From positions 25,192-89,191 of the forward strand of contig CAZUCF010000003.1 of assembly GCA_964619405.1 (NCBI GenBank): a DNA stretch of 64,000 bases, written 5' to 3'. The notes beneath the pieces were generated by a model. That model was not told the origin of the DNA, did no database searches, and was given only the letters and a program-made list of their open reading frames with translations. This stretch comes from an uncultured archaeon. GTDB lineage: Archaea > Iainarchaeota > Iainarchaeia > Iainarchaeales > JAAZKV01. The position numbers and the translations under genes were made by a program. Shown here piece after piece: positions 18,807 to 60,513 of this stretch; positions within the stretch are counted from its first letter, which is position 1; the number at the start of each line of letters is the position of its first letter.

Positions 18807-20837
18807 TTATTTAATCATTATTGCATCAATTGCAAAAGCACCATTCTCATTAACAATTATTGGGTTCATTTCTATTTCTTTTATTTCTGGATAAGTTAAA
18901 GACAAATTTGAAACAGCTTTAATTACTTTTTTTAGTGAATCAATATCATATTTCTTTTTTGTTCGCGCGCCTTTTAAAACAGCTGTTCCTTTTACTTCTT
19001 CAAACATTTCTTCTATATCAGAGTCATTTATTGGAGCAATTTTTTGTGAAACATCCTTCATTATTTCAACAAATATTCCTCCTAAACCAAAAGTAATTAT
19101 TTTTCCGAATTCGTTTGTAATACTTGAAACAAGAACTTCTTGCCCCCAAATCATTTCTTGTAAGGCAATTTGTTTTGGTTTATTCATTTTTACAAGAATT
19201 TTTTGCATTTCAAAAAATATTTTTTTTGCTTCTTCTTTATTAACAATATTCCATTTTACTAAACCCAAATCGGTTTTGTGTGGTATTCCCGAAGAAGCTT
19301 TCATTGCTATTGGGAAAATAAATTTGTTTATTTGCTCATCAAACTCTTTTTCGTTTTCAACAAACTCGGTTTTACAAGTTTTGATTCCAAACTCATTTAA
19401 AATAGAAAATGCTTGCTTCATGTTTATTACAGAATTTTTTTTGATTAAATTAATTGTTTCTTGTTTTGGAACAATTTTTTGTTCAAAATTTTTTAACACT
19501 TTTTTTGATGAATCATACGCTCTTAAACGAGAAAGAGCTTTTATCCCTCGCTCAGGAGTATCAAATTCTACTATCCCATTTTCTCTAAAATGCCTTCTCG
19601 CATTACTAACTGCTGTTCCACCCAAAAAAGAACATAATATGGGTAAGCGCGAATTTAGTTCAACAATAATATCTGCTACTCTATCAGGATCAGTCATGCT
19701 TTGTGGTGTCAATAAAACATATAATAAATCAACATTTGCATCGTCTTGTAAAACTGTTAAAGCAGTTCTATAATCAATTGGTTTTGCATCCCCAATTAAA
19801 TCAAGTGGGTTAGAAGGATTTGGATTAATTTCTTTTACAATTTCAATGGTTTTCTTACTAAACATTGGTAAAGTAAAGTTATGATTTGATGCTGAATCAG
19901 CAGCTATTACTCCTGGACCACCAGCGTTTGTTACAACTGCTAAACGAAAACCATTTGGCTTTTTTAATTTTGAAAGTATTTTAGCCATGTCAAAAAAACC
20001 TTCTATTGAATTCATTCGAATTATGTTAGCTTTTTTGCAAGCAACTGAAAATATATTATCATCAACACTTAATGCTCCTGTGTGAGATGACGCTGCTTTC
20101 ACTCCTTCAGCACTCCTACCTGATTTCAATAATATTACCGGTTTCTTTTTTGCTAGAGCATAAGCTGATTTTAAAAAATCTGAATTATTTTTTACTGATT
20201 CCATGTAAACAAAAACTGCTTTTGTTTTTGGATCACTTGCAAGATAATTAAAATAAGAGCATTCACTCAAAAAAGATTTGTTTCCTGTTGAAATAAACTT
20301 GCTAAAACCAACTTTTTCTTTTCTAGCCCAATCTAATATTGCAGTACAAAGTGCACCACTTTGTGATACTAAAGCAATATCTCCTTTTGCAGGAAAGTTT
20401 GCTGAGAACGAAGCGTTCAAACCATTTTCACTATTAATTATTCCAAGAGTGTTTGGCCCAACAACATTCATTTCATTTTTTTCAACAATTTGTTTTATTT
20501 GTTCTTCGATTTTTTTTCCATCTTCACCAGTCTCACTAAAACCAGCTGTTATTATTACAACATTTTTAACATTTTTTTTAGCACAATCTTCAATTACACT
20601 TAAAACAAATTTTGATGGAACAACAATAATGGCTAAATCAATTTTCTTATTTATTTTTGTGATTGATGGAAACGCATCAATACCCAAAATTTTGTTTTCT
20701 TTTAAATTGATAGGATAAATTGGCCCTGAAAAATTCGCGTCAATAAGATTTTTTACTATAGCATAACCTACTTTTCCAGGAGCATTACTAGCACCAATTA
20801 TTGCAACGCTCTCTGGTTCAAACATTTTTTCTAGCAT
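18807..20837 (-). CDS. acd: acetate--CoA ligase (ADP-forming), fused alpha/beta
   Basis: N-terminal CoA-binding domain (VAIIGASNAPGKVG), succinyl-CoA-synthetase-like ligase domain and C-terminal ATP-grasp, 676 aa. Confidence 0.85.
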   Translation of the reverse strand: MLEKMFEPESVAIIGASNAPGKVGYAIVKNLIDANFSGPIYPINLKENKILGIDAFPSITKINKKIDLAIIVVPSKFVLSVIEDCAKKNVKNVVIITAGFSETGEDGKKIEEQIKQIVEKNEMNVVGPNTLGIINSENGLNASFSANFPAKGDIALVSQSGALCTAILDWARKEKVGFSKFISTGNKSFLSECSYFNYLASDPKTKAVFVYMESVKNNSDFLKSAYALAKKKPVILLKSGRSAEGVKAASSHTGALSVDDNIFSVACKKANIIRMNSIEGFFDMAKILSKLKKPNGFRLAVVTNAGGPGVIAADSASNHNFTLPMFSKKTIEIVKEINPNPSNPLDLIGDAKPIDYRTALTVLQDDANVDLLYVLLTPQSMTDPDRVADIIVELNSRLPILCSFLGGTAVSNARRHFRENGIVEFDTPERGIKALSRLRAYDSSKKVLKNFEQKIVPKQETINLIKKNSVINMKQAFSILNEFGIKTCKTEFVENEKEFDEQINKFIFPIAMKASSGIPHKTDLGLVKWNIVNKEEAKKIFFEMQKILVKMNKPKQIALQEMIWGQEVLVSSITNEFGKIITFGLGGIFVEIMKDVSQKIAPINDSDIEEMFEEVKGTAVLKGARTKKKYDIDSLKKVIKAVSNLSLTYPEIKEIEMNPIIVNENGAFAIDAIMIK

Positions 20838-20890
20838 TATAAATTAAACTCTTTTGACTATTAAATACTTATCTTAACAAATTATTTTAA

Positions 20891-22576
20891 TTAAAAAAGC
20901 ACTCCTTTGTTTTGAATACAATTCCCAAACATGTCAATTGGGTTTGCTCCTGCCCCAAACATTGGAAGAATGTTTGATTCTTCTTCAATTAAACAATCAA
21001 GGATTGTTGTTTCATCATTATTTATTGCATTAATAATTCCTTGTTTTATTTCACTTGGTTTTTCAATTGTTATTCCATTAAGCATGTAAGCTTCAGCAAG
21101 CTTAGCAAAATCAGGGCTTTTTTGTAAATGAGTGTGAGAATACCTTTTATCTAAAAACAATTCTTGCCATTGTCTAACCATCCCAAGATAAGAATTATTA
21201 AAAATTATTTGAGTAGTGTTAATGTTTTCAATTTTGCAAGTTGCTAGTTCTTGTGAAACCATTGCAAAGCTACCATCCCCATCAATGTTAATTACTTTTT
21301 CTTGCGGAGCAGCGATTTTTGCTCCAATTGATGCTGGAAAACCATAACCCATTGTTCCACTACCCCCAGACGTAATGAAAGTATTTGGGAGACTTCTTTT
21401 TAGGAAGTGCATTGCAAACATTTGGTGTTGGCCTGTCCCAGTAGTAACAATATCTTTTTTTTCAAGAACCATGTTTAATTCGTGAATAATTTTTCTTGGA
21501 TCAATTTTGTTTGAATTAATATCAATGTTGCAATTACATTCTTTGATAAAATTTTTTATTTTTTCTTGCCAAACATTATTTTTTTTAGAACTAAAGTTGA
21601 TTATTTTTATTAATTCTTTAAGAATTATTTTTGCATCACCCATAAGAGCAATCTCGTTTTTAACATTTTTATTAATTTCTTTTTTATCAATTTCTATTTG
21701 AATTATCTTTGCTTTTTGCGCAAAAAATTTTGTGTTTCCTGTTACCCTATCACTAAACCTACAACCAATAGAAATTATTACATCAGCATTAGCAATTGCA
21801 TAATTAGCAATTTTTTTTCCATGCATTCCAATTACTCCTAAAGCTAAAGGGTTTTTCTCATCAAAACAACCTTTTCCCATTAATGTTGTTGCAACAGGAA
21901 TATTTAAGCCAGAAGAGAGTTGATTTAATTCATTAATAGCCATTGAAGAAATTGTTCCACCACCAGCAATTATTACTGGACGCTCTGCTTCCAAAATTTC
22001 TTTTGAAGCTTTTTTTATATTATCAAAATCAATAATTGTTTTATCAAAAATTGTTCTTGAATTTTTTTGTTTGTCCGCGTTTTGCATTTGAATATCTTTT
22101 GGAATGTCAATTAGAACTGGACCTCTTTGTCCAATCATCGATGTTTGAAAAGCATTATTTATTATTGATTCTATTTGTTCAGCAGAATTAATTCTAAAAC
22201 TTTTTTTTGTAATTGGCTTTGCAATATCAACAATATTTGTTTCTTGGAATGTTCTTTTACCAGTTAGAGTTGTCGGAACGTTTCCTGTTAAAGCAATTAA
22301 CGGAACAAAATCCATGTAAGCAGTCATTATACCAGTAATTAGATTTGTAGAACCGGGGCCAGAAGTAGCCATGCAAACACCTGGTTTTTGTTTTATTCTT
22401 GCATAAGCATCAGCAGCATGAGCAGCTGCTTGTTCGTGCCTAACCAAAATATGTCTTATTTCTTCTTGGTTAAGTAATTCATCATAAATTGGAATGGTGC
22501 TTGCCCCAGGAATCCCAAATATTATTTCAGTTTTATTATCAATTAATATTTGAATTATTTTTTTCGCACCATGCAT
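20891..22576 (-). CDS. ilvB: acetolactate synthase large subunit-like ThDP enzyme
   Basis: ThDP-binding motif IDGDGSFAMV...IFNNSYLGMVRQWQ. N-terminal pyrimidine-binding domain with the conserved Glu (HEQAAAHAADAYAR). Confidence 0.8.
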   Translation of the reverse strand: MHGAKKIIQILIDNKTEIIFGIPGASTIPIYDELLNQEEIRHILVRHEQAAAHAADAYARIKQKPGVCMATSGPGSTNLITGIMTAYMDFVPLIALTGNVPTTLTGKRTFQETNIVDIAKPITKKSFRINSAEQIESIINNAFQTSMIGQRGPVLIDIPKDIQMQNADKQKNSRTIFDKTIIDFDNIKKASKEILEAERPVIIAGGGTISSMAINELNQLSSGLNIPVATTLMGKGCFDEKNPLALGVIGMHGKKIANYAIANADVIISIGCRFSDRVTGNTKFFAQKAKIIQIEIDKKEINKNVKNEIALMGDAKIILKELIKIINFSSKKNNVWQEKIKNFIKECNCNIDINSNKIDPRKIIHELNMVLEKKDIVTTGTGQHQMFAMHFLKRSLPNTFITSGGSGTMGYGFPASIGAKIAAPQEKVINIDGDGSFAMVSQELATCKIENINTTQIIFNNSYLGMVRQWQELFLDKRYSHTHLQKSPDFAKLAEAYMLNGITIEKPSEIKQGIINAINNDETTILDCLIEEESNILPMFGAGANPIDMFGNCIQNKGVLF

Positions 22577-31593: not shown

Positions 31594-32652
31594 TTAACTT
31601 TCCGAACGAACACACCTAACTCCGAACTTGTCGTCGCTAGTCTCATAGGCGGAGAGGATACCATCGAAGGAATTCAGGTAGTACGCGTAACCAGTAGAGC
31701 TAGGAACAGTGGTGCTTGACCAATAACCAAAACAAGTCGAATTCCAACCAGTTTGAGTAAAAACACTATTCAAATAACTCGAAGAAGGGTAACTCATGTC
31801 AGGCAAAGTTGCTAACTCAACAAAAGAAGGAACTCTCCAGTCACCAACACTAGAACCGTCAGTCAAACCATCAACACCATTAGCAAGAGTACTACAATAA
31901 CTCAAAGCACTCTCCCCACTCTCCCAAGTAACAGTCTTACAAGTACCCCCACTCATTCTATGATTCTTCTGCCAACACAAACCAGTATGATTATCTAAAA
32001 CAGTCCCACCACCACAACCATCAGCAGTATAACTTTTTGCAGTACCATCCTGCTCTTTATCATCCAAATCCCCAACATCATAACTAGTTGTTTGACCACT
32101 ATGAAGTTCAACCGCAAAAGGGCATTGATCAGCTAACATATTAGCATTAACAGTGTAAGGCGTGCAATCAAAAAAAACTTTTGAAGGATAACGCTCTGTT
32201 TTTGTCAAACCTTGACGAGTAACATAAGTAACAACCAAATCCTCTTGCAAAATCTTTCCTTCCTCACACACTGTTTCAGCATCAACTACAAAATACTTTG
32301 AACCACCCTGAGCCAAATCCTCTGAAAACAAAACCTCTTCACCACCAAGCTCAATCTTACTAATAGTCAAAATATTGCCAGTATTATTCAACAACTTAAC
32401 AGCAAACTCTCCATCACTATTAACCATTGACTCGGTAACACCAATACTAGAAGACATTACAGCCAACTCACTAGAATCGCTAGAAACACTAGAACCAGAA
32501 TCAAGAAAACCAACTAACAAACCAACAACCACAAGAGAAATAACAATAACAACACCAATTATTACAAGGTATTCTATGGTTCCTTGTCCTTTAGAATTTT
32601 TAACAAAACACTCACCAAAAAACATTTTAACTACACCCCTAAAAAAAACCAT
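31594..32652 (-). CDS. DGR target: type IV pilin-like (class III signal peptide) protein with C-terminal DUF1566/C-type-lectin-fold variable domain
   Basis: N-terminus KGQGTIEYLVIIGVVIVISLVVVGLL (archaeal prepilin-like). C-terminus GLCWQKN...DWRVPSFVELATL...YWSST...FGVRCVRSES (DUF1566-like), ending in the VR. Confidence 0.85.
   Translation of the reverse strand: MVFFRGVVKMFFGECFVKNSKGQGTIEYLVIIGVVIVISLVVVGLLVGFLDSGSSVSSDSSELAVMSSSIGVTESMVNSDGEFAVKLLNNTGNILTISKIELGGEEVLFSEDLAQGGSKYFVVDAETVCEEGKILQEDLVVTYVTRQGLTKTERYPSKVFFDCTPYTVNANMLADQCPFAVELHSGQTTSYDVGDLDDKEQDGTAKSYTADGCGGGTVLDNHTGLCWQKNHRMSGGTCKTVTWESGESALSYCSTLANGVDGLTDGSSVGDWRVPSFVELATLPDMSYPSSSYLNSVFTQTGWNSTCFGYWSSTTVPSSTGYAYYLNSFDGILSAYETSDDKFGVRCVRSES
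31599..31710 (-). repeat. DGR variable repeat (VR)
   Basis: 112 nt at the 3' end of the target CDS are homologous to the TR. Mismatches fall overwhelmingly at TR adenines. Confidence 0.85.
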
Positions 32653-32951: not shown

Positions 32952-33908
32952 TCATTTTATTGATTGGATTTTTTTTATTATTTTTATAAGAAATGATAAA
33001 AGATTTTCTTTAAATACAACATAATCTTTTTTGTTCAACTCAATAAGCAACAATAATTCTATATCATCATCACTTTTTAAAAAATCTTGGGTTTTTTCTT
33101 GGAGTATTTTAATTGATCTTAAAAGATGCTTATCAACATATTGAATAAAACCCTCTGAACTTAAAACCTTCCTTTTAATTAAGCTAGTATTTATTTTATT
33201 TAAAGGACAAAGTTTGTCAAGAAGATACAAATCAAGAATATCCCTTTCTTTTAAAGTATTTCTAGTCAAAATCGCGCGTACCTTTTCAAGCATCACTTCA
33301 CGAATATCATATTGGAGAATACTTACCTTTACAAGATCATAATTTATTACATTGAGTCGCTTTTTTTCAACCCCCAAAAATTCAGCAAAATTAAACAAAC
33401 TATCTTCCTTGCATTTAAATACCAAATCTTCAATAAAATTAATCTCAATCTTAACCACTTCTTCATTTGAATTAATAAGAGAGGTATAATACAAATACAA
33501 TTTGTACACTGAGCGATCATTCAAAATTTTTACATATTTTGCATTTGTTCTACTAGTCTGAAAATCAAAACCGTTTTGATCAGCAATTTTTTTAAACGCT
33601 TCAATAAGAGGAATAATAGTTTTCTTTATCCTAGCTTCACGCGTTTTTCCTTTCAAAAGACGAATTTCTTTAGAATCCTTATGAGTAAAATCAAGATCCA
33701 CACTAATACGATGATAATTTAGATATTTTTTTGTAAGAAGCGTTCCACCTTTAAAAATAAGTCCTTGTAATTGAGTTTCTTGTGTTTTTAATTTTTGATA
33801 AGAACTAAGAACTTTAGAAAGCACATAATCTTTCTCAATAGATTCAAGAGAAATATTTTTCTTACTTTGAATTAATTTTCCATAAATAGCAAACTCTGTT
33901 TTATCCAT
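32952..33908 (-). CDS. AbiEii/AbiGii-family nucleotidyltransferase toxin (type IV TA)
   Basis: FKGGTLLTKKYLNYHRISVDLDF nucleotidyltransferase signature, about 318 aa. Overlaps the upstream partner gene by 8 nt. Confidence 0.75.
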   Translation of the reverse strand: MDKTEFAIYGKLIQSKKNISLESIEKDYVLSKVLSSYQKLKTQETQLQGLIFKGGTLLTKKYLNYHRISVDLDFTHKDSKEIRLLKGKTREARIKKTIIPLIEAFKKIADQNGFDFQTSRTNAKYVKILNDRSVYKLYLYYTSLINSNEEVVKIEINFIEDLVFKCKEDSLFNFAEFLGVEKKRLNVINYDLVKVSILQYDIREVMLEKVRAILTRNTLKERDILDLYLLDKLCPLNKINTSLIKRKVLSSEGFIQYVDKHLLRSIKILQEKTQDFLKSDDDIELLLLIELNKKDYVVFKENLLSFLIKIIKKIQSIK

Positions 33909-34521
33909 TTAATTCAACCTTTGCTTTTAAAAAGCTTGGAACTTTTAACAAATATTTTTTTAATTTTTGTTTATTTTTCTTATCTAGCAAATCTAAAGGA
34001 ACTTTCTTTTTATAATAAACAAAATCAATAATAGTTTTTTCAATGTCGGAATAATTCCAAACAATATTTTGAGAATTTTTTAACTCACAAACACCAAAAA
34101 AAAGATCTTTACGCATTTTTTTGAACAAAAACACTTGATTAAATATATTAAAAGAACCAGAAAATTTAGAATTAATAATAATTGTCCTGTTTATTGCTTG
34201 CCAAACAACTTTATTTTGCACAAGCGCACTTTCAAGTCCTAAATACCAATCAATATTTAATTCATTTAATATAATATACATCATTTCCAAAGGAGCCATT
34301 TTATTAAAATCTTTCTCAACTTCCTCAGCATCCCTTACATAATAATATTTTTTCCAAACATATAATATTTTTTTTGACTCACGAAGACTCCTAAACAAAG
34401 CAAAAGTAGAACAAGAATTAATCGTTTGATTTAAATGTGAACAAATTTCTTTTTTTGAAACAACTTTCTTTTTAAGACCATCAAGTGCTTGACGTGCAAG
34501 AAGATTATCATCAAGAGTCAT
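33901..34521 (-). CDS. putative AbiEi-like antitoxin/transcriptional regulator
   Basis: 206-aa ORF immediately upstream of, and translationally coupled to, the AbiEii-like gene. The call rests on position and size, not on a clear motif. Confidence 0.45.
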   Translation of the reverse strand: MTLDDNLLARQALDGLKKKVVSKKEICSHLNQTINSCSTFALFRSLRESKKILYVWKKYYYVRDAEEVEKDFNKMAPLEMMYIILNELNIDWYLGLESALVQNKVVWQAINRTIIINSKFSGSFNIFNQVFLFKKMRKDLFFGVCELKNSQNIVWNYSDIEKTIIDFVYYKKKVPLDLLDKKNKQKLKKYLLKVPSFLKAKVELNG

Positions 34522-34686: not shown

Positions 34687-36699
34687 TTAATACAAATTAT
34701 CAAATATTTTTTTGCCATCATTTTCTTCCAAGAATTTTTTTCTCTCATTCACATACTCTTGTATTTTTTTTGCTATGTCTGGAGTAACGTGTTTGAATCT
34801 TCCTTGTATCATTAAATATTCTTCAACAGGAATTTGCGTTGGCTTTGCACTTAATTTTAGAACACCTTCTTCAATCTCGTATATGGGTGAAACCCACGAG
34901 TCAAGCGCTTTTTTTGCAACGTCAATAGTACTACTTGGATCTATTTTCCACCCTGGAATACAAGGAACTAAAACATGTAAAAAACTCGGACCATTCACTT
35001 TCAAAGCTTTTTCTACTTTGCTTTTCAAATCAATTAAATTTGTTACACTAGCAGTTGCAACATAATTTAATCCGTGGGCTGCAACAATAAAAGGCAAGGG
35101 TTTTTTTGGTTGTTGTTTTCCTTTAATTATTTTTCCTGCTGGGCTAGTAGTAGTGCTTGCATAAGGGAATGTTGCTCCGCTTCTTTGTATTCCCGTGTTA
35201 TGTACTACTATTCCGTTTGCTATAAAATTGTGTTCTCCTTCTACTCGCAAGTCAAGTGTTGGCTCTACTCCCTTTTTTTCTATTGAAATAATTTTTTTTG
35301 TTTCAAAGTACTCGTTCCCAAATAAATAATTTCTTTGTTTGTTTTGGTTAGCATATTTTAGTAATGCTCCTTGTTTTGAACTAAAACAAACATAACCATA
35401 TGTTGATTCTTTTAGCAATGCTCTTTTTACTACGAGAGTTCCTTCTTTTTTTGTTTGTGAATGAATTTTTCCAACTCGCACATCCATTGTTTGAAGTAAT
35501 AGTCTTAATGTTCTTAAAAGTTCAAAACTTGCTGAAACATACCTATTACTTTTTCCTATTTTGTATCCGTCAGAAAGCATTAATCCTTCAACAAAAGCTT
35601 CTTTTTCTTTTAATGGCAGAGTAAAAACCCATTGTGGAATTATTTTGTTTTTTGCGCCTTTTCCAAAGCCAAGGGAATCAAAAAACTTTGCTACGTTTAT
35701 TGAATTAATATGTAATTCATTATCATTTTCGCTTAAACAATTACTCCACAACAAGTTTTCTATTAATTGTTTTGCTTCTTTTCTTCCTTTAATTTTTTTT
35801 GGGAGAGCAAAACCAACTTCGGCCTTGTTTATTCTCGTCCAACCATCTCCAACATATATTCCAAGTAATTTCATTAATTCAATGGAAGAATTTTCTGGCA
35901 AATTAACTTCATTTATTTTGTTAACTTTATAATCACCTTTTTTTGATAAAACTATTTTAGAAAAATTAAATGGTTTTCCTTCTAAACCTTTTTTTAGTGA
36001 AACTATTTCGTCCCCAATTTTTAATTCTTCAACCATTTTCCAAACGAAATTGTTTTGCCCTTGTTTTCCATTTCTTTGTAGTACTAAGAAGGGATGATTT
36101 CCTGTTGCTTTTATTGTGTTTGAATTAGTATTAATTTCAAAAACTCTTTTTTTACCATTATCAAATACTCCAACACATTTTTTTAGAACTAGTTCATTTG
36201 TTTTTTGACCGAAAGCATAAACTTCGTCCCCAACATTTATTTCAGTAATTTTTTTAAGTCCGTCTTTTGTCATTATTAATGCGTCTAAAGCCAAGCAATT
36301 CATGTAAGCTTCATTGTCAGTTACAATATACAAAATTTTGTGGCCTCTTTCTACTGCTCCTGAAAGTGCTCCAAATCCAATGTCAAACATTGCTCCGTCT
36401 CCGCCCATCGCAATAACGTTTGTTTCTTTATCTCCTTTCGTATTTAATGCTGCCCTGATTCCTGATGCTACTGCTGCTGCGTTTTCAAATGCGCAGTGCA
36501 CGAATGGAATTTCCCAACTTGTTTCTGGATATGGTGTTGAAACTACTTCCATGCAACCAGTTGCTTGTGCTACAATTGTTTTTCTTCCAGCTGCTTTTAG
36601 TATGTGTCTTAGGGCTAGTGCTTCTCCGCACCCAGCGCATGCCCTGTGCCCGCTTGCAAAAAGTTCTTCTTCATTAATTCCCATTACAGCCATAATCAT
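34687..36699 (-). CDS. porB: pyruvate/2-oxoacid:ferredoxin oxidoreductase beta subunit, interrupted by an intein
   Basis: Exteins carry [16 protein letters not shown] and DNEAYMN|TGIQRSG (ThDP site). The mature size would be 303 aa. Confidence 0.85.
35197..36297 (-). mobile_element. intein (367 aa) with LAGLIDADG homing-endonuclease domain in PorB
   Basis: Starts with Cys ([13 protein letters not shown]), ends ANGIVVHN, followed by +1 Thr. LAGLIDADG motifs are [10 protein letters not shown] and [11 protein letters not shown]. Confidence 0.85.
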
Positions 36700-36744: not shown

Positions 36745-37902
36745 TTATTTGAGCCAAACTCCTTTCCCACCTTTTTCTAATATTTCAAATGCTTTTTTTA
36801 TCCTTACAATGTCAATGTCTCTTCCACCTAAACCAGAAATAAATCCTTCTACTTTTACTTTTTCATCTTTTAGGGCTGCTTTTACATCTAATGTAATTGC
36901 TCCTTCGCTTCCAAGTGAAACGTGTCTATCAATTATTCCCACTACTTTAAGATTTTTGCAAGCATTAATTATTTCTTTTACAGGGAAAGGCCTAAATGTT
37001 TTTAGTTTTATTAAACCAACTTTTTTTCCTTTACTCCTTAATTCTTCTACTACTACTCTTGCTGTTCCAACGCTTGTTCCGTTTGCTATTAATGCATATT
37101 CTGCATCATTCATTTCTATTAATTCTATTAAACCATTTCCATAACTTCTACCAAAAACACTAGCAAATTCTTTGTGAACTAGCGGAATTTCTTTTAATGC
37201 TTCTTGCATAGCTATTTGTTCGTGTTCGTGGAATTCAAAAAAACTATTTGGGAATGCTATTGGCCCAAAAGTTTTTGGATTATTTGTGTCCAAAATATCT
37301 TTTGGATTGTATTTTGGTAAGAATGAATCAACTTTTTCTTGTTCTTCTATTTGTACTGGTTCATAAACATGGCTTAATGCAAAACCATCAATACAAACCA
37401 TTACAGGCAAGGAAACATTTTCTTTTTCTGCTATTTTGTAAGCCATTAAAATTGTGTCAAACGCTTCTTGGCTTGATTCACAATACATTTGTATCCAGCC
37501 TTGGTCGCGTTCACTCATTGCGTCAGAGTGATCATTCCAAATATTTATTGGACCACTAATAGTTCTGTTTGCTACACTCATTACTGCTGGAAACCTTGAT
37601 GCCGAAATAATTGGGAGTATTTCGTGCATTAATGCTATTCCGTTTGATGCACTTGCAGTGAATGCTCTTACGCCTGTTGCATAAGCTCCAAATAATGCAC
37701 TTGCAGCACTATGCTCTGATTCAACATTAATCATTTCTGCTTTTAATTCTCCGTCATTAATAAATTCACTAATTTTTTCTGGTACAAGAGTACTTGGTGT
37801 TATAGGGTACATGGGGCAAACTTTTGGCCTGCAAAGTTTTACTGCTTCCGCAATCGCATCACTCCCACTTATTACAATTTTTTTAACCATGCATTTCACC
37901 AT
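36745..37902 (-). CDS. porA: pyruvate:ferredoxin oxidoreductase alpha subunit
   Basis: 385 aa, N-terminal GSDAIAEA...YPITPST and the context of a G-D-A-B operon. Confidence 0.9.
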   Translation of the reverse strand: MVKCMVKKIVISGSDAIAEAVKLCRPKVCPMYPITPSTLVPEKISEFINDGELKAEMINVESEHSAASALFGAYATGVRAFTASASNGIALMHEILPIISASRFPAVMSVANRTISGPINIWNDHSDAMSERDQGWIQMYCESSQEAFDTILMAYKIAEKENVSLPVMVCIDGFALSHVYEPVQIEEQEKVDSFLPKYNPKDILDTNNPKTFGPIAFPNSFFEFHEHEQIAMQEALKEIPLVHKEFASVFGRSYGNGLIELIEMNDAEYALIANGTSVGTARVVVEELRSKGKKVGLIKLKTFRPFPVKEIINACKNLKVVGIIDRHVSLGSEGAITLDVKAALKDEKVKVEGFISGLGGRDIDIVRIKKAFEILEKGGKGVWLK

Positions 37903-37941: not shown

Positions 37942-38220
37942 TTATTTTTCCTCCACTTTGTGACTAATACATCTTACTGGGCACACTTTTTCACAGATTA
38001 AGCATCCTTTACAATAATCATAATTTATTTCAAAGAACCCGTCTTTTGTTTTTCTTATTGCTCCATCAGGACAATTCATCCAACATTTACCACACTTAAT
38101 ACATTTTGATTTATCAATTGATGGTTTAAATGTTCTCCAGTCACCAGTCTTATATTTTTTTGTTGAACCGGGTTCTCTAATCACTGCACCTTTACTAAAA
38201 CCTAATTTTTTTTCAATCAT
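37942..38220 (-). CDS. porD: pyruvate:ferredoxin oxidoreductase delta subunit (2x[4Fe-4S])
   Basis: CIKCGKCWMNCP and CKGCLICEKVCP cluster motifs. Confidence 0.85.
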   Translation of the reverse strand: MIEKKLGFSKGAVIREPGSTKKYKTGDWRTFKPSIDKSKCIKCGKCWMNCPDGAIRKTKDGFFEINYDYCKGCLICEKVCPVRCISHKVEEK

Positions 38221-38756
38221 TCTTTGCCACCCGCCGATTTGTAAACTTTTCTAATTGCTTCTAAATTTTTTTCTATGATTGGTCCTTTTGAACCCATTTG
38301 TTCATAAATTGCTTTTTCAAGTCCAACAAGAGACACTTCTTTTGTTACTGCAGCAAATGCTCCAAGAGCAGCAATATTTACAAATGGTTTACCAATTTCT
38401 TCAAGAGCAATTTTTGTAATATCAACGCACACAACTTTTGCTTTTGTTTTTATATTAAGTTCTTCTGGTTTTTTATTTGAATTAATTATTATTGTATCAA
38501 AAACATTTTCTGTTAAACCATTTAGAAGAGTTGCATCAAGAACTATTGCATAATCTGCTTCATAAACTTGTTCTCGTAGATTTATTTTTTGTTCATCAAT
38601 TCTTGCATAACTTCGAACAGGTGCACCCATTCTTTCAACACCAAAATTTGGGAAAGCTTGAGAAAATTTTCCATCAATAAACGCAGCAATTGCTAGTACT
38701 CTTGAAGAAGTTACTGCTCCTTGGCCACCTCTCCCCAAAAAAATTATTTGTTTCAT
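38217..38756 (-). CDS. porG: pyruvate:ferredoxin oxidoreductase gamma subunit
   Basis: GRGGQGAVTSSRVLA motif. ATG at 38756. Confidence 0.85.
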   Translation of the reverse strand: MKQIIFLGRGGQGAVTSSRVLAIAAFIDGKFSQAFPNFGVERMGAPVRSYARIDEQKINLREQVYEADYAIVLDATLLNGLTENVFDTIIINSNKKPEELNIKTKAKVVCVDITKIALEEIGKPFVNIAALGAFAAVTKEVSLVGLEKAIYEQMGSKGPIIEKNLEAIRKVYKSAGGKE

Positions 38757-38910
38757 TTTATCACAAAAATTTTTAATATAACAATAAACCAAAACTTTAG
38801 TTTAACTAACATTTTAATTCAATAAATGTTAAAAAAGTAATGTATTTCAATTATAAAAAGTTAATTCAACAAAGTTTAAAAAGCAAACTAACAGACGAAA
38901 TTGTATTCGT

Positions 38911-54761: not shown

Positions 54762-57239
54762 TCAAATTTTTCTGTCAACTAAATATTCAGCAAATTTTTT
54801 TAGGATTTTTTTTGCATTACTTTCTTTTAAAACAGAATCAATTTCGCTCCAAGCTTCTTCAACCATTTTTTCTGCAATTTTTTTTGAGTAATCAATCCCA
54901 TCGTATTTATTTATTATATCAAGTGCTTCTTGTAATTCTTTTTCTTTTGTTGTGTGAGAATCAAGAATTTCTATTAACCTTTTCTTGTCTTCTTTAGAAG
55001 CAACTTCAAGTGTTCTTATCACAATCAAAGTTCTTTTTCCCTCATGAATGTCTCCACCAATAGAACCTTTTTTTTCTTTAAATTCTTGTTCAGTTAACTC
55101 TAGAATATCGTCTTGTATTTGGAAACCCACTCCAATAATTTGGCCAAAATTCCCAAGTGCTTCAAACTGTTTTTTTGTTGAATTACCAATTATTGCTCCT
55201 AATTGGCAAGCAAATTTTGTTAGAACCCCTGTTTTTGATAAACACATATTTAAGTATTGTGACTCGTTAGGAGTAAAGCCACCATGGTGCCAAGCAATAT
55301 CCCAAACTTGCCCAGAACAAACCCTAAGCATTTCTTTAATATACAAATCATAAATTTGTAATTTTTTTTCATTAGAAAAAGAAAAATCATTATTCATTAT
55401 TTTTATCATTGGCCAATAATACATTATTGTTCCTGTGTTAACAGCAGTGTCAACACCAAATTTTTTGTGAGTGCAGGGTTCTCCTCTTCTTGATTTTGAA
55501 TCATCTTCCACATCATCTTGCATCAAAGTATTGTGGACTATTATCCCATTACAAATATATGAGTGTGTTTCTTCTACTTCAATATCAAATGTTTGAATTG
55601 GCTCTCCTTCTATTATTTCTCTTACTTCAACAAAGCCTATTTTTTCAAAATCAGTTTGTTCTGGCATGAAAGGCACTTTTTCTTTTTGTCTTAAAGTTAC
55701 TTGTCTAACAAATTGTCTTGATAATCTTTGAGTGTTAGTTGTTGATTCTGAACCAATTTCTTGAGCAACTCTTTCTGTTGAACTAACATCAAAACCAAAA
55801 AGAACGGATTCTTTTTTTATTGAATTAGAAAAGTGCTTGTTTGAAATAATTTTTTTATTAATGTTGCTTGTAACAAAACCAAGGCTATCTAATAACATTT
55901 TCATTTGAGTCATTAGCTCTTCGTTTGCACAATCAAAACACACGTACCCTTTTTTGTTAATGTGTCCATCTGAATCAATATATCCTTTAATAAAAGCTAA
56001 TTTGTGTTCTCTTGGAAGAGAAAAAACCCAATTAGGAATATTTATTTCTAAATGATTTTTTTTTAAACCCAAGTAATCAAATAAATTTGCTAGTGCAGTT
56101 GAACAAAGAGTAATTCTTTCTTTATACTGCGATGGCTCAGATTCAAATACTTTCTTTGCTAGCAAAACATATTCTTCCCTGCCTTCAATATTTTTTGGTA
56201 AGCATAATTCAACCTTGTCTTTCGCAATATGACCATCACCAATTATTAAACCACAAATTTGTGCTAGTTCTTTAGTCATCATTGTTGGAATAACATATCT
56301 ATCTTTAAAATTTTTTTCAAAAAAAGGAATTTCTGGAAGAACTCCTTCATCAGAATACACATTTTTTCCAACAACTAACAAATCACCTTTTTCCAATTTT
56401 TTTGCCCTAACCCATTTAAACTCTATTTTTGGTTGTTCGAACACACATTGTTTTTTTTCAAAATTATTCCAGTCTAAACCATATTCTTCAACTAAATAAT
56501 CAACGAACTCTTCAGGCAAGTAACAATTTTTATAACCCCTAATTGAATTAAAAATTGCTCTTGAATTTAAACCACCAAAATCACTTTTTTTAAATGCTTC
56601 TTTAACTAATGAAAAAGTTGATTGTTTTTTGGCACGAGCTTTTTCTTCAATTAGACACAATGTTTTTTTGTTTACTTTATAATGAAATTTTTGTTCTTTT
56701 TGAACTGATAAAAACGGGTGCTCTTCAGTTACACTAATAGTTCTATTATTACTAATTACTTTTAAAACTTTTTTTACACCATTGTCGTGCTTAAAAGAAA
56801 CTCTTCTTTCTTTTATTCTACCAAATTTGTCAACTGACAAAACATAATCTCCGATATTAACATCTTTAATTTTTTTTGGCGAGCCATCAGCCATCCAAAC
56901 TAAAGCATTTTCGTCAACACAACCATTGTGAATTAACTCTACTATTGGTGCTAATTTTAAACCATCGCCCCATTTTCCACCAACCGATTCTGCACAAATA
57001 CAAGTTAGTATTGGCCTAAATCTTTTTCCTCCTCTGTCAAGCAAATCCCAAATTGGTTCATTACAACCAGCCGAGTAAGCATTTAAATCTAATTCAAAAA
57101 CAGTTTTTCCTAATGCATTTTCAACCCATTCTTTTATTGCTTTTCTGGGAATAAATTTTTCTAATTCTTTTTCAATAATCGGAACTTCTTTTTTTAAAAA
57201 GGATTTTATATCCATTTTTGTGTCTTTTTCTGAAACCAT
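54762..57239 (-). CDS. idsA: geranylgeranyl diphosphate synthase (polyprenyl synthetase), interrupted by an intein
   Basis: Exteins carry GGKRFRP, ELIHNG|TLMQDDVEDD (first Asp-rich motif) and FQIQDDILE (second). The mature size would be 361 aa. Confidence 0.85.
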   Translation of the reverse strand: MVSEKDTKMDIKSFLKKEVPIIEKELEKFIPRKAIKEWVENALGKTVFELDLNAYSAGCNEPIWDLLDRGGKRFRPILTCICAESVGGKWGDGLKLAPIVELIHNGCVDENALVWMADGSPKKIKDVNIGDYVLSVDKFGRIKERRVSFKHDNGVKKVLKVISNNRTISVTEEHPFLSVQKEQKFHYKVNKKTLCLIEEKARAKKQSTFSLVKEAFKKSDFGGLNSRAIFNSIRGYKNCYLPEEFVDYLVEEYGLDWNNFEKKQCVFEQPKIEFKWVRAKKLEKGDLLVVGKNVYSDEGVLPEIPFFEKNFKDRYVIPTMMTKELAQICGLIIGDGHIAKDKVELCLPKNIEGREEYVLLAKKVFESEPSQYKERITLCSTALANLFDYLGLKKNHLEINIPNWVFSLPREHKLAFIKGYIDSDGHINKKGYVCFDCANEELMTQMKMLLDSLGFVTSNINKKIISNKHFSNSIKKESVLFGFDVSSTERVAQEIGSESTTNTQRLSRQFVRQVTLRQKEKVPFMPEQTDFEKIGFVEVREIIEGEPIQTFDIEVEETHSYICNGIIVHNTLMQDDVEDDSKSRRGEPCTHKKFGVDTAVNTGTIMYYWPMIKIMNNDFSFSNEKKLQIYDLYIKEMLRVCSGQVWDIAWHHGGFTPNESQYLNMCLSKTGVLTKFACQLGAIIGNSTKKQFEALGNFGQIIGVGFQIQDDILELTEQEFKEKKGSIGGDIHEGKRTLIVIRTLEVASKEDKKRLIEILDSHTTKEKELQEALDIINKYDGIDYSKKIAEKMVEEAWSEIDSVLKESNAKKILKKFAEYLVDRKI
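55530..56921 (-). mobile_element. intein (464 aa) with LAGLIDADG endonuclease in GGPP synthase
   Basis: Cys1 (CVDENALVWMADGS), C-terminal CNGIIVHN, +1 Thr. LAGLIDADG motifs are ICGLIIGDGH and FIKGYIDSDGH. Confidence 0.85.
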
Positions 57240-57408: not shown

Positions 57409-60400
57409 TTATTTTTCGCTTAATTGTTCTTCAAGTATCTTATTGAGTAATTCTAAAAATTCATCTAATCTTTCAGATGGTATTTTCATTCCGGCTGCTA
57501 TTGAATTGTGCACAATTAAACCATTCGCCATAAAATTTTTTGTTTTTGGGATAGATAAGTCAAGAAAACCATTTTTATACCCCAAACTTTTTTTTGATTT
57601 AATCTCATAAAATGTTAAATGCTGGCTATTAACTATTTTGTCTAACCACTTAATTTTATTTAAACAATCTATGGGTATTTTGTACTTATTTTTTAAAATC
57701 GGATAAATAAAATATTTATTTAAAGAATGATAATTCATTCTTTTAGTTTTGATTCTTGAATATAACACATTATAATCAAATAATTCTCTTGAAATATTAT
57801 TTTGTTTTATAAATTTTCGCATAAACCCATAAGTTATTGGTGAAAACAACATTGAATTTCTTTTTTTCTTTGACTGTTTTTTTATTATTTTTTTTAACAA
57901 AATATCTTTTTTCCCATTTTGTGTAAAACCTATTTTCTTTTGAAATATTTTAATGGAATCAAAATCAGTAATATCTAAAACAAATGATCTTTTTGAATTA
58001 AATTTATTTGTTTTTTTTGTTTTAACTTCTCTAAAATTAGATTTTACTCCAAATCTCAAAAGAAGTATTTGAACTGTTTTAAGTAAATATTCATCCACTA
58101 GCCTTATCATAATAAATCTATCAAAAACACAGGCTTCTGCATCGAACAAACCACTAATATAACTTGCTAAAATATTATTTTTCGAAATCATTATTTTTTT
58201 TGGGACATTTAAATTACCAGTCAGTAATTTGAGTTCGGGAAAATTTTTTTCAAAAAATCGGCACAAATCCGCAGAATAAATACGTATTTTTTTATAATTA
58301 CCCATATCAATTAAAGTTGATTTTAAAGAAAAATTGTTTAAAATTGATTTTTGAAATTTTTCTAAAATTTTTCTATCTGATTCTTTAGCTTCAATTCTTT
58401 TTTTACCAATATTTCCGTCACTTTGAATATAACCAAGAAGCCAAGCTATTTCGAAATTTAGTTTGTTTGAATTACAAACAAACTTTTTTTCAATAAATTG
58501 TGAATAAAAATACTTTTTTGATATTTTGAGTAATGAAAGATACTCAATTAAATGACTTTCAATAATTTTGTGTGACCTAAACTGTTCTAAAGCATTAATA
58601 CTACACAAATTATTTTCAAATGACAAGAGTTTGTTTGTTAATTCTTTTTTTGATAATTTTAATTTTAAACGTTTATTTTTTAAAAAGTTCGAACTTTCTT
58701 TCTTTAAATAAATAAATTTATTATTTATTAATTTAATATCTTGTCCCGCAAAAGGAATTTTTTTGACACCCAAAACAAAATCTTTTTCCAACAAATCTTT
58801 AGCTTTTACTTCAACTAAACTAAAATTTTCAAATTTAAAAAAACGGTGTTCTTCTGAAGAAATTATTTCTGTATTTTTTGTTTTAAATGAAATGGTTTTT
58901 TTCTTTTTTGATACAAAAACTTTATCGCATTTTGAATTTATTAAATTAAAATTAGAATTACTTAACAAATAGTCTGTTTTTATTATTTCTGATATTTTAC
59001 AAATTTCCCCTCTTTTTTTTTGAACTAGTGTGTCAGGATGCAAACAATGGCCACCACCTTGAACTCCAATAATCTCTTTTTCTATTTGTTTAAAGGCTTT
59101 ACCTAAATTAAGGCCTTTTCTAATGAGTGCTTGGGTGCCTCTACCAGAAACTTTTATTGTATTATCTTCGTTTCGTGCTAAAGCGATTATTGGTTTGTCT
59201 TCATTTATTACTGAACCATATAACATGCCAGCAATTATTCCTACAAGAGAATCTTGTATTGCGTCTTTTGCATCAAAAAAATAAAATGACTTTTTTTCTT
59301 CAACACCATTAGCATTAACAAATTCAATTCCTTTTCTTAATTCTCTTTTGTGTTCTTCTATAAGCAATAATAATTTTCCATAATAACTATTTGAACTCCT
59401 ATTCCCCAAACAAACTTGTAATGCTACTTCTGGCATAGCATGTCTACCTGCAGAATTACAAGCTGTTGCAAATTCTTTTGCATCGCGCAAAGGACTTTTT
59501 AATAATTCTTTTTCAAGAGTATAAACTTCTCCAATCAAAGATTGTATTTTCCATTCGGGAACCCCTTGTTCTGACAAATGAATTATTAGAGCAGAAGAGA
59601 GTACTTGCTTTTGTTCTATTGAAAGATCTTCATATGAAAGCCACTCATCATTAAAAGAGTCTTTTAATGGAATATTATTTTGTTTCAAAAAAGCAACACA
59701 ATTTTCTTCGCTTGCTGTTAACCCAGGAATAATTGGTGAAGAAGAAAACATTAGAAATGATACTAGTGGCCGAGAAATTCTACCATATAATCTCAAATCA
59801 TTTTTAACAAAAAGAATTTTTTCTTTTACAGCAATATCAATTATTTTTCTATTCAAACCAATTAGTTTTCCTGAAAAATCTTGCATGTCCCCAACAGCAC
59901 CAACAATAGCCAAACCAGATAAATCAACATTTTTTTTATTTAATGCAAGAGCAAAAAAGAATGCTGTTCCAGAACCGCTTAACTCTTTTCCGCCATCAAT
60001 ACCATAAAATAATGGGTTAATGTGCCGCGGAATTTTTGTTCCAAGAGTAATCAAAAAATCGTTTTCAGATTCTTTATTTTCAATACTTTGATTTTTTTTT
60101 CCTTGCGTAACGGAATCGGGCTCACCACAAGACCAGATCGCCCGTACGGAATCGGGCTCACCACAAGACCGGATCGCCCGTACGGAATCGGGCTGGTGGT
60201 GATCCAAAATAAATAAATTTTTTTTGCCCAAACCATTAATTAAATGGTCTAATTGGCCCGAACCAAAATCTACAAACAAATATGTTTTTCCAAGTTTTTT
60301 TATTTCATCAATGTTTTCTTTGTATAATTGTTTTAAACACAAGTGCGTTACTTTTTTTCCTTCTCTTTCCAACGCTTTTATTGCTATTGCTCCACTTGTA

Positions 60401-60513
60401 ATACCATCAGCGTCATAATGATGAATAACCACTATTGAATCACTATGTTTTATCTCACAAGCAAATTTTTCTAAATCTAAAAAAAAATTTTCTTCAAACC
60501 TTTGTTCAACCAT
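57409..60513 (-). CDS. RecJ/GAN-like DHH-family nuclease, interrupted by an intein and carrying a 24-aa repeat insertion
   Basis: DHH motifs HHYDADG, DFG and LDHH. The DHHA1 motif GGGH|SIAAG is split by the intein. The mature size would be 520 aa. Confidence 0.8.
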   Translation of the reverse strand: MVEQRFEENFFLDLEKFACEIKHSDSIVVIHHYDADGITSGAIAIKALEREGKKVTHLCLKQLYKENIDEIKKLGKTYLFVDFGSGQLDHLINGLGKKNLFILDHHQPDSVRAIRSCGEPDSVRAIWSCGEPDSVTQGKKNQSIENKESENDFLITLGTKIPRHINPLFYGIDGGKELSGSGTAFFFALALNKKNVDLSGLAIVGAVGDMQDFSGKLIGLNRKIIDIAVKEKILFVKNDLRLYGRISRPLVSFLMFSSSPIIPGLTASEENCVAFLKQNNIPLKDSFNDEWLSYEDLSIEQKQVLSSALIIHLSEQGVPEWKIQSLIGEVYTLEKELLKSPLRDAKEFATACNSAGRHAMPEVALQVCLGNRSSNSYYGKLLLLIEEHKRELRKGIEFVNANGVEEKKSFYFFDAKDAIQDSLVGIIAGMLYGSVINEDKPIIALARNEDNTIKVSGRGTQALIRKGLNLGKAFKQIEKEIIGVQGGGHCLHPDTLVQKKRGEICKISEIIKTDYLLSNSNFNLINSKCDKVFVSKKKKTISFKTKNTEIISSEEHRFFKFENFSLVEVKAKDLLEKDFVLGVKKIPFAGQDIKLINNKFIYLKKESSNFLKNKRLKLKLSKKELTNKLLSFENNLCSINALEQFRSHKIIESHLIEYLSLLKISKKYFYSQFIEKKFVCNSNKLNFEIAWLLGYIQSDGNIGKKRIEAKESDRKILEKFQKSILNNFSLKSTLIDMGNYKKIRIYSADLCRFFEKNFPELKLLTGNLNVPKKIMISKNNILASYISGLFDAEACVFDRFIMIRLVDEYLLKTVQILLLRFGVKSNFREVKTKKTNKFNSKRSFVLDITDFDSIKIFQKKIGFTQNGKKDILLKKIIKKQSKKKRNSMLFSPITYGFMRKFIKQNNISRELFDYNVLYSRIKTKRMNYHSLNKYFIYPILKNKYKIPIDCLNKIKWLDKIVNSQHLTFYEIKSKKSLGYKNGFLDLSIPKTKNFMANGLIVHNSIAAGMKIPSERLDEFLELLNKILEEQLSEK
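57505..59046 (-). mobile_element. intein (514 aa) with LAGLIDADG endonuclease in the RecJ-like protein
   Basis: Cys1 (CLHPDTLVQKKRG), C-terminal ANGLIVHN, +1 Ser. LAGLIDADG motifs are LLGYIQSDGN and YISGLFDAEA. Confidence 0.85.
60111..60205. repeat. GC-rich 36-bp tandem repeat (2 full units plus a partial) inside the RecJ-like CDS
   Basis: cggaatcgggctcaccacaagacc[a/g]gatcgcccgta at 60111 and 60147, with a partial copy at 60183. About 61% GC. Encodes VRAIRSCGEPDS/VRAIWSCGEPDS directly after LDHHQPDS. Confidence 0.9.

Follow-up and report, generated by a model that had tools for sequence, protein, structure and literature searches.

The question raised by this locus is what a 367-residue insertion is doing in the active-site loop of an enzyme of central metabolism. 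The insertion lies in porB, predicted to encode the beta subunit of pyruvate:ferredoxin oxidoreductase (PFOR), on a 64,000-nt stretch of contig CAZUCF010000003.1 from an uncultured archaeon (here called the window; all coordinates are window positions, and all genes and features named lie on its minus strand). The host is an archaeon of the Iainarchaeota/Diapherotrites type within the DPANN group, with a low guanine-plus-cytosine (GC) content. Inteins are typical of proteins of replication, repair, and nucleotide metabolism. As a rule, which the site in PorB follows, they are inserted in highly conserved regions of the host protein that bind ligands, where the target DNA is invariant and imprecise loss is lethal. 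The sequence hallmarks, all of which are present, support the identification of the insertion as a class-1 intein with a nested LAGLIDADG homing endonuclease. We consider it very probable that this bipartite intein is an active homing element, which is spliced out of the PorB precursor and persists and spreads by homing.

The porB open reading frame (ORF; 34687 to 36699) encodes a precursor of 670 residues that is identical to database protein P0001. Its N-extein (residues 1 to 134; 36298 to 36699) contains a CAGC iron-sulfur (Fe-S) cysteine motif and a GDG motif, ends in VTDNEAYMN, and covers positions 3 to 134 of the PorB model NF008819. The intein (precursor residues 135 to 501; 35197 to 36297, 1,101 nt) extends from Cys1 to His366-Asn367, and the C-extein (residues 502 to 670 plus the stop codon; 34687 to 35196) starts with Thr+1 in TGIQRSGAT and resumes the model from position 134. 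The splice junction reads DNEAYMN/TGIQRS, where the slash marks the point of insertion. These boundaries agree with the first-pass annotation of this DNA, which had placed a 367-residue insertion in a 670-residue PorB ORF and had read its ends as CLALDALI and GIVVHN followed by Thr. With the intein present, the match to NF008819 falls into two stretches, split at 134/135; the spliced protein of 303 residues matches in one continuous stretch, 3 to 297 of 300, as would be expected if, as annotated, removal of the insertion leaves a normal beta subunit.

The annotation had proposed a search of intein models. The insert alone scored above the cut-off with the Pfam model Intein_splicing (PF14890; 63.3 bits, E = 3e-17, cut-off 35.8) and with the models of the N-terminal (TIGR01445; 34.8 bits, cut-off 24.5) and C-terminal (TIGR01443; 28.4 bits, cut-off 15.6) intein regions, and its top intein-type NCBIfam match was an intein-containing DnaB model. 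The N-terminal part of the Hint domain (intein residues 1 to 118; 35944 to 36297), whose boundary was taken from the mini-intein of P0033, corresponds to TIGR01445 and includes Cys1 of block A and the T65-x-x-H68 signature of block B, here T65-G-N-H68. The C-terminal part (residues 310 to 367; 35197 to 35370) corresponds to TIGR01443 and includes blocks F and G with D349, H356, H366, and N367. All seven of these residues, along with Thr+1 and the Asn at position -1, are invariant in 120 of 120 aligned homologues, as are Gly+2 and Gln+4 of the C-extein. The Hint blocks and splice-junction residues on which the earlier reading had been staked are present. An AlphaFold2 model of the intein, computed with 15 diverse homologues as input, was confident, with a mean predicted local distance difference test score (pLDDT) of 89.7 and a predicted template modeling (TM) score (pTM) of 0.88. 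Its top fold match in the PDB was the TliVMA intein (E = 1e-22, TM 0.74); further matches were PhoVMA, PI-PkoII, PI-SceI, and PI-PfuI, and mini-inteins matched the splicing part. By sequence alone, the nearest solved structures were the Ssp DnaB mini-intein and PI-PkoII.

Between the two Hint parts lies the predicted homing endonuclease domain (approximately intein residues 119 to 309; 35371 to 35943), delimited by the segment absent from the P0033 mini-intein and supported by fold matches. Both LAGLIDADG motifs noticed in the first-pass annotation are found there: LLGIYVGDG at intein residues 144 to 152 (35842 to 35868), with the catalytic Asp151 kept in 117 of 120 homologues, and VEGLMLSDG at residues 236 to 244 (35566 to 35592), with the catalytic Asp243 kept in 119 of 120. 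This part of the structural model matches PI-PkoII, PI-SceI, PI-PfuI, and I-DmoI, and the modeled order of helices and strands over residues 139 to 306 agrees with the alpha-beta-beta-alpha-beta-beta-alpha endonuclease fold. In ten close pairs, the ratio of nonsynonymous to synonymous divergence (dN/dS, or omega) was 0.04 to 0.15 in the endonuclease domain and 0.03 to 0.16 in the exteins; the endonuclease domain is under purifying selection.

The position of the intein in the enzyme was examined by comparison with solved PFOR structures. The closest structure to the spliced PorB, the beta subunit of Methanosarcina acetivorans PFOR (9bt4_C, E = 2e-84), is contiguous across the site, where it reads VDNEAYMNTGIQRS. 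The thiamine diphosphate (ThDP)/Mg motif of the window protein, G100-D101-G102-X26-N129, with the residues through Asn134 at position -1 (36298 to 36402), aligns with GDG...DTEVYSN/TGGQ of Desulfovibrio africanus PFOR (1b0p), so that DNEAYMN/TG stands opposite DTEVYSN/TG. When the one-residue offset between chain index and residue number is allowed for, Asn134 is the equivalent of D. africanus Asn996, which lines the part of the pocket that surrounds the methyl group of pyruvate and rotates upon substrate binding; Mg2+ binding has been assigned to the GDG motif and the downstream Asn (PMC5020499). The first-pass annotation had located the intein inside the ThDP/Mg-binding loop, and the alignment refines this placement to the C-terminal edge of the motif, between Asn134 and Thr and five residues past the Mg-binding Asn129. 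With Asn134 and Thr held apart by the intein, the unspliced precursor presumably cannot form the ThDP/substrate pocket and could not be a working enzyme.

We next compared the site with empty alleles. A search with the spliced exteins returned intein-free PorB proteins of 299 to 305 residues, many of them labelled Diapherotrites, Candidatus ainarchaeum, or simply "archaeon"; labels among the close homologues include Candidatus ainarchaeum/Iainarchaeum, Diapherotrites, and archaeon ADurb.Bin336. In total, 116 full-length relatives are intein free, with identities up to 93% (P0121). The contig that encodes P0121 (L001) repeats the order seen in the window: porC-porD-porA-porB and, further upstream, an amino-acid kinase gene. 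Its porB and the spliced window coding sequence, 912 nt each, align without gaps at 86% nucleotide identity, rising to 92% across the 30 nt on each side of the junction. The empty site in L001 consists of ATTGTAACTGACAATGAGGCTTACATGAAT followed directly by ACAGGAATTCAAAGAAGCGGAGCAACGTTT. Alignment to intein-free PorBs, which the annotation had recommended, crosses the junction without a gap, and with respect to L001 the insertion is codon precise. In order of falling extein identity to the window protein, empty and occupied alleles alternate, beginning with empty (0.93), occupied (0.89), empty (0.87), empty (0.87), and occupied (0.86). On a neighbor-joining (NJ) tree of 232 exteins, occupied and empty alleles are interleaved, and at least 30 changes of intein state are required.

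The intein is widespread. With the full-length precursor as the query, 741 proteins were found at E <= 1e-10, and the best 120 all carry the intein; nearly all of these are 650 to 700 residues long, and the five of 479 to 636 residues represent truncated gene calls or the P0033 mini-intein. When GTDB species, each represented by one genome, were scanned with a profile, at least 268 genomes encoded a relative. Junctions could be parsed in 77 of the 80 best genomes, and all but one share the pattern x-Y-(M or Q)-N/C...HN/T-G-x-Q-R-S; the lone deviating N-side flank (HDTNVV) is an artefact of regular-expression parsing and not another site. Judged by record titles, archaeal carriers include Iainarchaeum, Woesearchaeota, Nanoarchaeota, Aenigmatarchaeota, Heimdallarchaeota, and Bathyarchaeia, and bacterial carriers include Omnitrophota (many, one of them an 85-kb single-cell contig), Planctomycetia, Cloacimonadota, Aerophobetes, Clostridia, Chloroflexi, and Parcubacteria.

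Database names for these proteins vary. In IMG, several carry the name [quoted passage not shown] and names given by NCBI to some include "hypothetical," "LAGLIDADG family homing endonuclease," and "polymorphic toxin-type HINT domain-containing protein." A full-text literature search found no paper linking inteins to pyruvate/2-oxoacid:ferredoxin oxidoreductases. Papers on Thiomargarita and Nanoarchaeota report no PFOR/PorB intein, and none appears in the main text of the Novikova 2016 intein survey, whose supplementary tables might list one. No searchable publication thus appears to describe this intein host and site, which automated annotation nevertheless flags already. The view of the first-pass annotation that a central-carbon oxidoreductase is not a classic intein host holds in so far as the search found no paper that makes the connection; the rarity it implied does not, given that the intein is found at this site in hundreds of proteins and in at least 268 species-level genomes and given the IMG labels.

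Every stage of the homing cycle is represented at the same site. In addition to empty alleles and full-length copies with an intact endonuclease, the YMN/TG position holds a copy with a decayed endonuclease (P0245), in which both LAGLIDADG Asp residues are replaced (GIFIASG and GMTNTNG), and a natural mini-intein (P0033) that is missing approximately intein residues 119 to 309. The histories of intein and host gene were compared by NJ trees and identity measures. In three pairs (L017/L019, L073/L078, and L048/L059), synonymous divergence (dS) is 0.29 to 0.74 in the intein and 1.05 to 2.1 in its own exteins, i.e., 2- to 4-fold lower, which suggests that intein exchange in these pairs took place later than the divergence of the host genes. 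Intein identity exceeds extein identity in 87 to 93% of pairs, and for pairs with one archaeal and one bacterial label, the figures are 60% for the intein and 50% for the extein. Distance matrices of intein and extein correlate poorly (rho 0.15 to 0.26) compared with those of the N- and C-exteins (0.49) or of the Hint and endonuclease parts (0.58). In individual cases the two records point in different directions: an archaeal-labelled PorB (L016) has its nearest extein at 64% identity, whereas its intein shares 81% identity with the one in a Cloacimonadota genome, and a Bathyarchaeia PorB has its nearest extein at 55%, whereas its intein is 76% identical to a Clostridia-labelled copy. As judged from these comparisons, the history of the intein is partly decoupled from that of the exteins. 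This incongruence, the patchy distribution, and the purifying selection on the endonuclease lend indirect support to cleavage of empty alleles, and together with the mini and decayed copies they are consistent with an active homing element.

By analogy with characterized inteins, splicing and homing would proceed as follows. porB would be translated as the 670-residue precursor, in which an N-S acyl shift at Cys1 would be followed by trans-esterification, with Thr+1 attacking the thioester. Cyclisation of Asn367, aided by His366 and residues of blocks B and F, would then free the intein, and an O-N shift would complete the joining of the exteins into the 303-residue PorB (...EAYMN-TGIQRS...). 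The freed 42-kDa intein would act as a site-specific DNA endonuclease on empty porB alleles, with the DNA encoding YMN/TGxQ as the putative target, and repair from an occupied allele would copy the intein into the cut one. Such homing would allow the element to persist and spread, running through a cycle of empty site, full-length intein, decayed endonuclease, and mini-intein and moving between distantly related anaerobes.

Several points weigh against an active homing element in the window. The homologues were gathered by their similarity to queries that were more than half or wholly intein, a choice that inflates the observation that the intein is more conserved than the extein. For the closest pairs of the window copy itself, as for most pairs, dS is saturated (~1), so that recent mobility of this copy is not demonstrated. 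Selection at the level of the host, instead of selfish mobility, may likewise account for how strongly the intein is conserved. The window copy scores 22.0 bits with the Pfam model LAGLIDADG_3 (PF14528), against a cut-off of 22.5, so that its endonuclease is identified from the motifs, from the homologues, and from the match in fold; most homologues have a precomputed match to this model. Finally, bacterial and archaeal labels derive from the binning of metagenome-assembled genomes and are perhaps partly wrong. It is unlikely, however, that all 29 bacterial-labelled species genomes, which come from unrelated studies, are mislabelled, and the nearest neighbours of their exteins are mostly bacterial-labelled.

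Some of these points would fit an intein that still splices but has become fixed, with an endonuclease that is dead in this lineage and with vertical inheritance only, retained because an imprecise deletion in the active-site loop would be lethal. Between the window and its nearest relatives, dS is no lower in the intein than in the exteins, the LAGLIDADG_3 score is slightly low, and composition gives no sign of recent arrival: the intein has a GC content of 29.4%, equal to the window mean of 29.4%, and the exteins have 38%. What the composition shows is amelioration only. We nevertheless regard a fixed, immobile intein as unlikely. Both catalytic Asp residues and the adjoining motifs are intact in the window copy, and omega in the endonuclease is ~0.1 in the pairs of the window with L004 and L005, indicative of purifying selection. 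Moreover, an empty allele with 93% protein identity exists, which implies that gain or loss of the intein was recent within the clade.

It is also conceivable that the intein has been domesticated, the host keeping splicing as a switch that holds back the maturation of PFOR, an oxygen-labile enzyme, until reducing or cofactor-replete conditions prevail. In one variant of this idea, a disulfide between Cys1 and Cys41 may form under oxidising conditions and block splicing. Cys41 (36175 to 36177) is invariant in PorB inteins (120 of 120 homologues and 10 of 10 representatives), whereas Val occupies this position in 113 of the 137 related inteins compared from other hosts. The intein is more conserved than the surrounding enzyme, it is located in the active site of a redox enzyme, and redox- or temperature-gated inteins are known, an example being the RadA intein as discussed in PMC4760082. 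Against such a switch, many close relatives are intein free, and mini and decayed variants exist, a pattern expected of a parasite and not of a required regulator. In addition, the catalytic residues of the endonuclease are conserved, although a splicing switch has no need of them. Host control of this kind therefore seems quite improbable to us.

That the insertion is no intein at all, but a lineage-specific inserted domain, a domain of the bacterial intein-like (BIL) or PT-HINT type, or an assembly artefact, with the 670-residue protein being mature or a pseudogene product, is extremely improbable: weak sub-threshold Pfam matches to PT-HINT (25.3 bits, cut-off 27.7) and Hint models could be cited for it, but intein-specific models are passed where these are not, the splice-junction residues are complete and invariant, the active-site loop it splits is contiguous in solved PFOR structures, the reading frame is intact on more than 100 independent contigs, and the insertion is codon exact relative to empty alleles. 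BIL and PT-HINT domains occur in variable or secreted proteins and mostly lack ligation by a +1 nucleophile. The BIL/PT-HINT class was rejected on its scores (Hint_2 reached 16.4 bits, with a cut-off of 28.4, in addition to the PT-HINT value above) and on the site, a conserved active-site loop with Thr+1.

Among known relatives of the PorB intein, the solved archaeal inteins TliVMA and PhoVMA (7qsu, 7qss, and 7qst), PI-PkoII (2cw7), and PI-PfuI (1dq3) and the yeast intein PI-SceI (1vde) have the same Hint domain with a nested two-motif LAGLIDADG endonuclease and share the class-1 catalytic residues (TM 0.66 to 0.74, E down to 1e-22), but their sequence identity to the PorB intein is only 13 to 21%. 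Their hosts are V-ATPase, DNA polymerase, and ribonucleotide reductase, whereas PorB is a ThDP oxidoreductase; the PorB intein (367 residues) also lacks a separate DNA-recognition region of the kind found in PI-SceI (454 residues). Blocks A, B, F, and G of the Ssp DnaB mini-intein (1mi8) and other DnaB and GyrA mini-inteins align with the PorB splicing domain, but these have no endonuclease and reside in replication proteins. On the side of the host, the exteins form an ordinary PorB, with GDG-X26-N, YMNTGxQ, and Fe-S cysteines, comparable to 9bt4_C and to domain VI of D. africanus PFOR (1b0p); both of the latter are contiguous across N/T, where the loop of the window PorB is interrupted by 367 residues.

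Closer relatives were sought with the intein alone in an exhaustive HMMER search of 1.84 billion representatives. Two full-length PorB clusters scored 446 and 437 bits, and the next full-length match, in a different host, scored 252 bits at 33% identity. Among the lower matches checked, the non-PorB hosts with an identifiable domain were SufB and subtilase-family proteases; two others showed intein domains only, and a few further ThDP proteins also matched. The SufB (P0243, P0252, and P0265) and subtilase (S8; P0269 and P0277) inteins, from metagenomic proteins, are the closest non-PorB relatives, with 30 to 35% identity over the full 367 residues and an equal order of domains. SufB resembles PorB in being a nonreplicative, Fe-S-related host. 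These inteins differ in host and site, score at most 252 bits compared to 446 bits inside the PorB family, and mostly have Val at position 41, where all PorB inteins have Cys. A viral vector was sought by running the PorB-intein profile against IMG/VR; the matches were all distant inteins, with full-length identity of at most 30%, and no PorB-type copy was among them.

PorB can be invaded more than once. Two proteins, P0257 and P0250, contain two inteins each, one directly after GDG(A or G)/ and the other at YMN/TG, so that PorB has at least two intein sites, which flank the ThDP motif. The intein at the GDG(A or G) site bears an endonuclease and has the form C...LNGN/SYDIG; the one at YMN/TG in P0257 is a mini-intein.

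The window itself contains two further inteins. One interrupts an 825-residue polyprenyl (geranylgeranyl diphosphate-type) synthetase (54762 to 57239); it bears a LAGLIDADG endonuclease (Intein_splicing, 51.8 bits; LAGLIDADG_3, 44.4 bits), and its junctions, ...VELIHNG/CVDENA...GIIVHN/TLMQDDVEDD, precede the first Asp-rich Mg/diphosphate-binding motif by a few residues. The other, also endonuclease bearing (Intein_splicing, 69.1 bits; LAGLIDADG_3, 67.4 bits), lies within the GGGH motif of a 1,034-residue DHH/DHHA1/DHH-CID protein resembling RecJ/GAN (57409 to 60513), with junctions ...GVQGGGH/CLHPDT...GLIVHN/SIAAG. Near residue 110 of the latter ORF, a short peptide is duplicated in tandem (DSVRAIRSCGEP / DSVRAIWSCGEP).

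The neighbourhood of porB bears on the identity of the host enzyme. The spliced protein, a subunit predicted to bind ThDP and [4Fe-4S], scores 78.6 bits with the ThDP-binding domain model PF02775 and 390 bits with NF008819 (PorB), for which the equivalog cut-off is 405; the next model, VorB, scores 318.6. As the best hit, PorB is the best name; with the NF008819 score just under the cut-off, pyruvate specificity is likely but not established. Immediately upstream and on the same strand are porC/porG, encoding the gamma subunit (38217 to 38792; TIGR02175, 178.6 bits, cut-off 81), porD, encoding the delta subunit, which resembles a 2x[4Fe-4S] ferredoxin (37942 to 38220; NF040684, 118 bits; TIGR02179, 99 bits, cut-off 60), and porA, encoding the alpha subunit (36745 to 37902; NF040682 PorA_Arch, 498.7 bits). 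The locus is, as predicted from these assignments, a four-subunit (porC-D-A-B) PFOR operon. Elsewhere in the window, the region from 18807 to 22576 fits a fermentative module leading from pyruvate via acetyl-CoA to acetate.

Directly downstream of porB is a gene for an AbiEii-type nucleotidyltransferase toxin (32952 to 33908; PF08843, 68 bits), overlapped at its upstream end by a partner ORF of 206 residues with no Pfam match (33901 to 34521). The region from 32952 to 34521 has a very low local GC content of 0.19 to 0.29, and in the intein-free relative L001 an HD-domain gene takes the place of these genes. A 352-residue ORF lies at 31594 to 32652, and its N-terminal KGQGTIEYLVIIGVVIVISLVVVGLLV resembles an archaeal type IV pilin-like signal peptide, which it may represent.

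The PorB intein does not depart in mechanism from standard inteins, and the kind of element is entirely known. What it adds is its place: an abundant intein, found in DPANN and Asgard archaea as well as in several bacterial phyla, that interrupts the active site of an enzyme serving anaerobes in central carbon and energy metabolism, and with it a well-populated nonclassical host for the intein catalogue. For protein engineering, it offers a compact new intein/endonuclease pair with a defined candidate target site. Annotation of PorB inteins matters for the metabolic reconstruction of uncultured lineages. If splicing did serve as a conditional switch, a benefit to the host would help to explain the high conservation of the intein and its retention at one position in archaeal and bacterial phyla alike. 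The empty, full-length, endonuclease-decayed, and mini-intein alleles of porB, doubly invaded PorBs included, form a natural series for the homing cycle and for transfer between domains of life.

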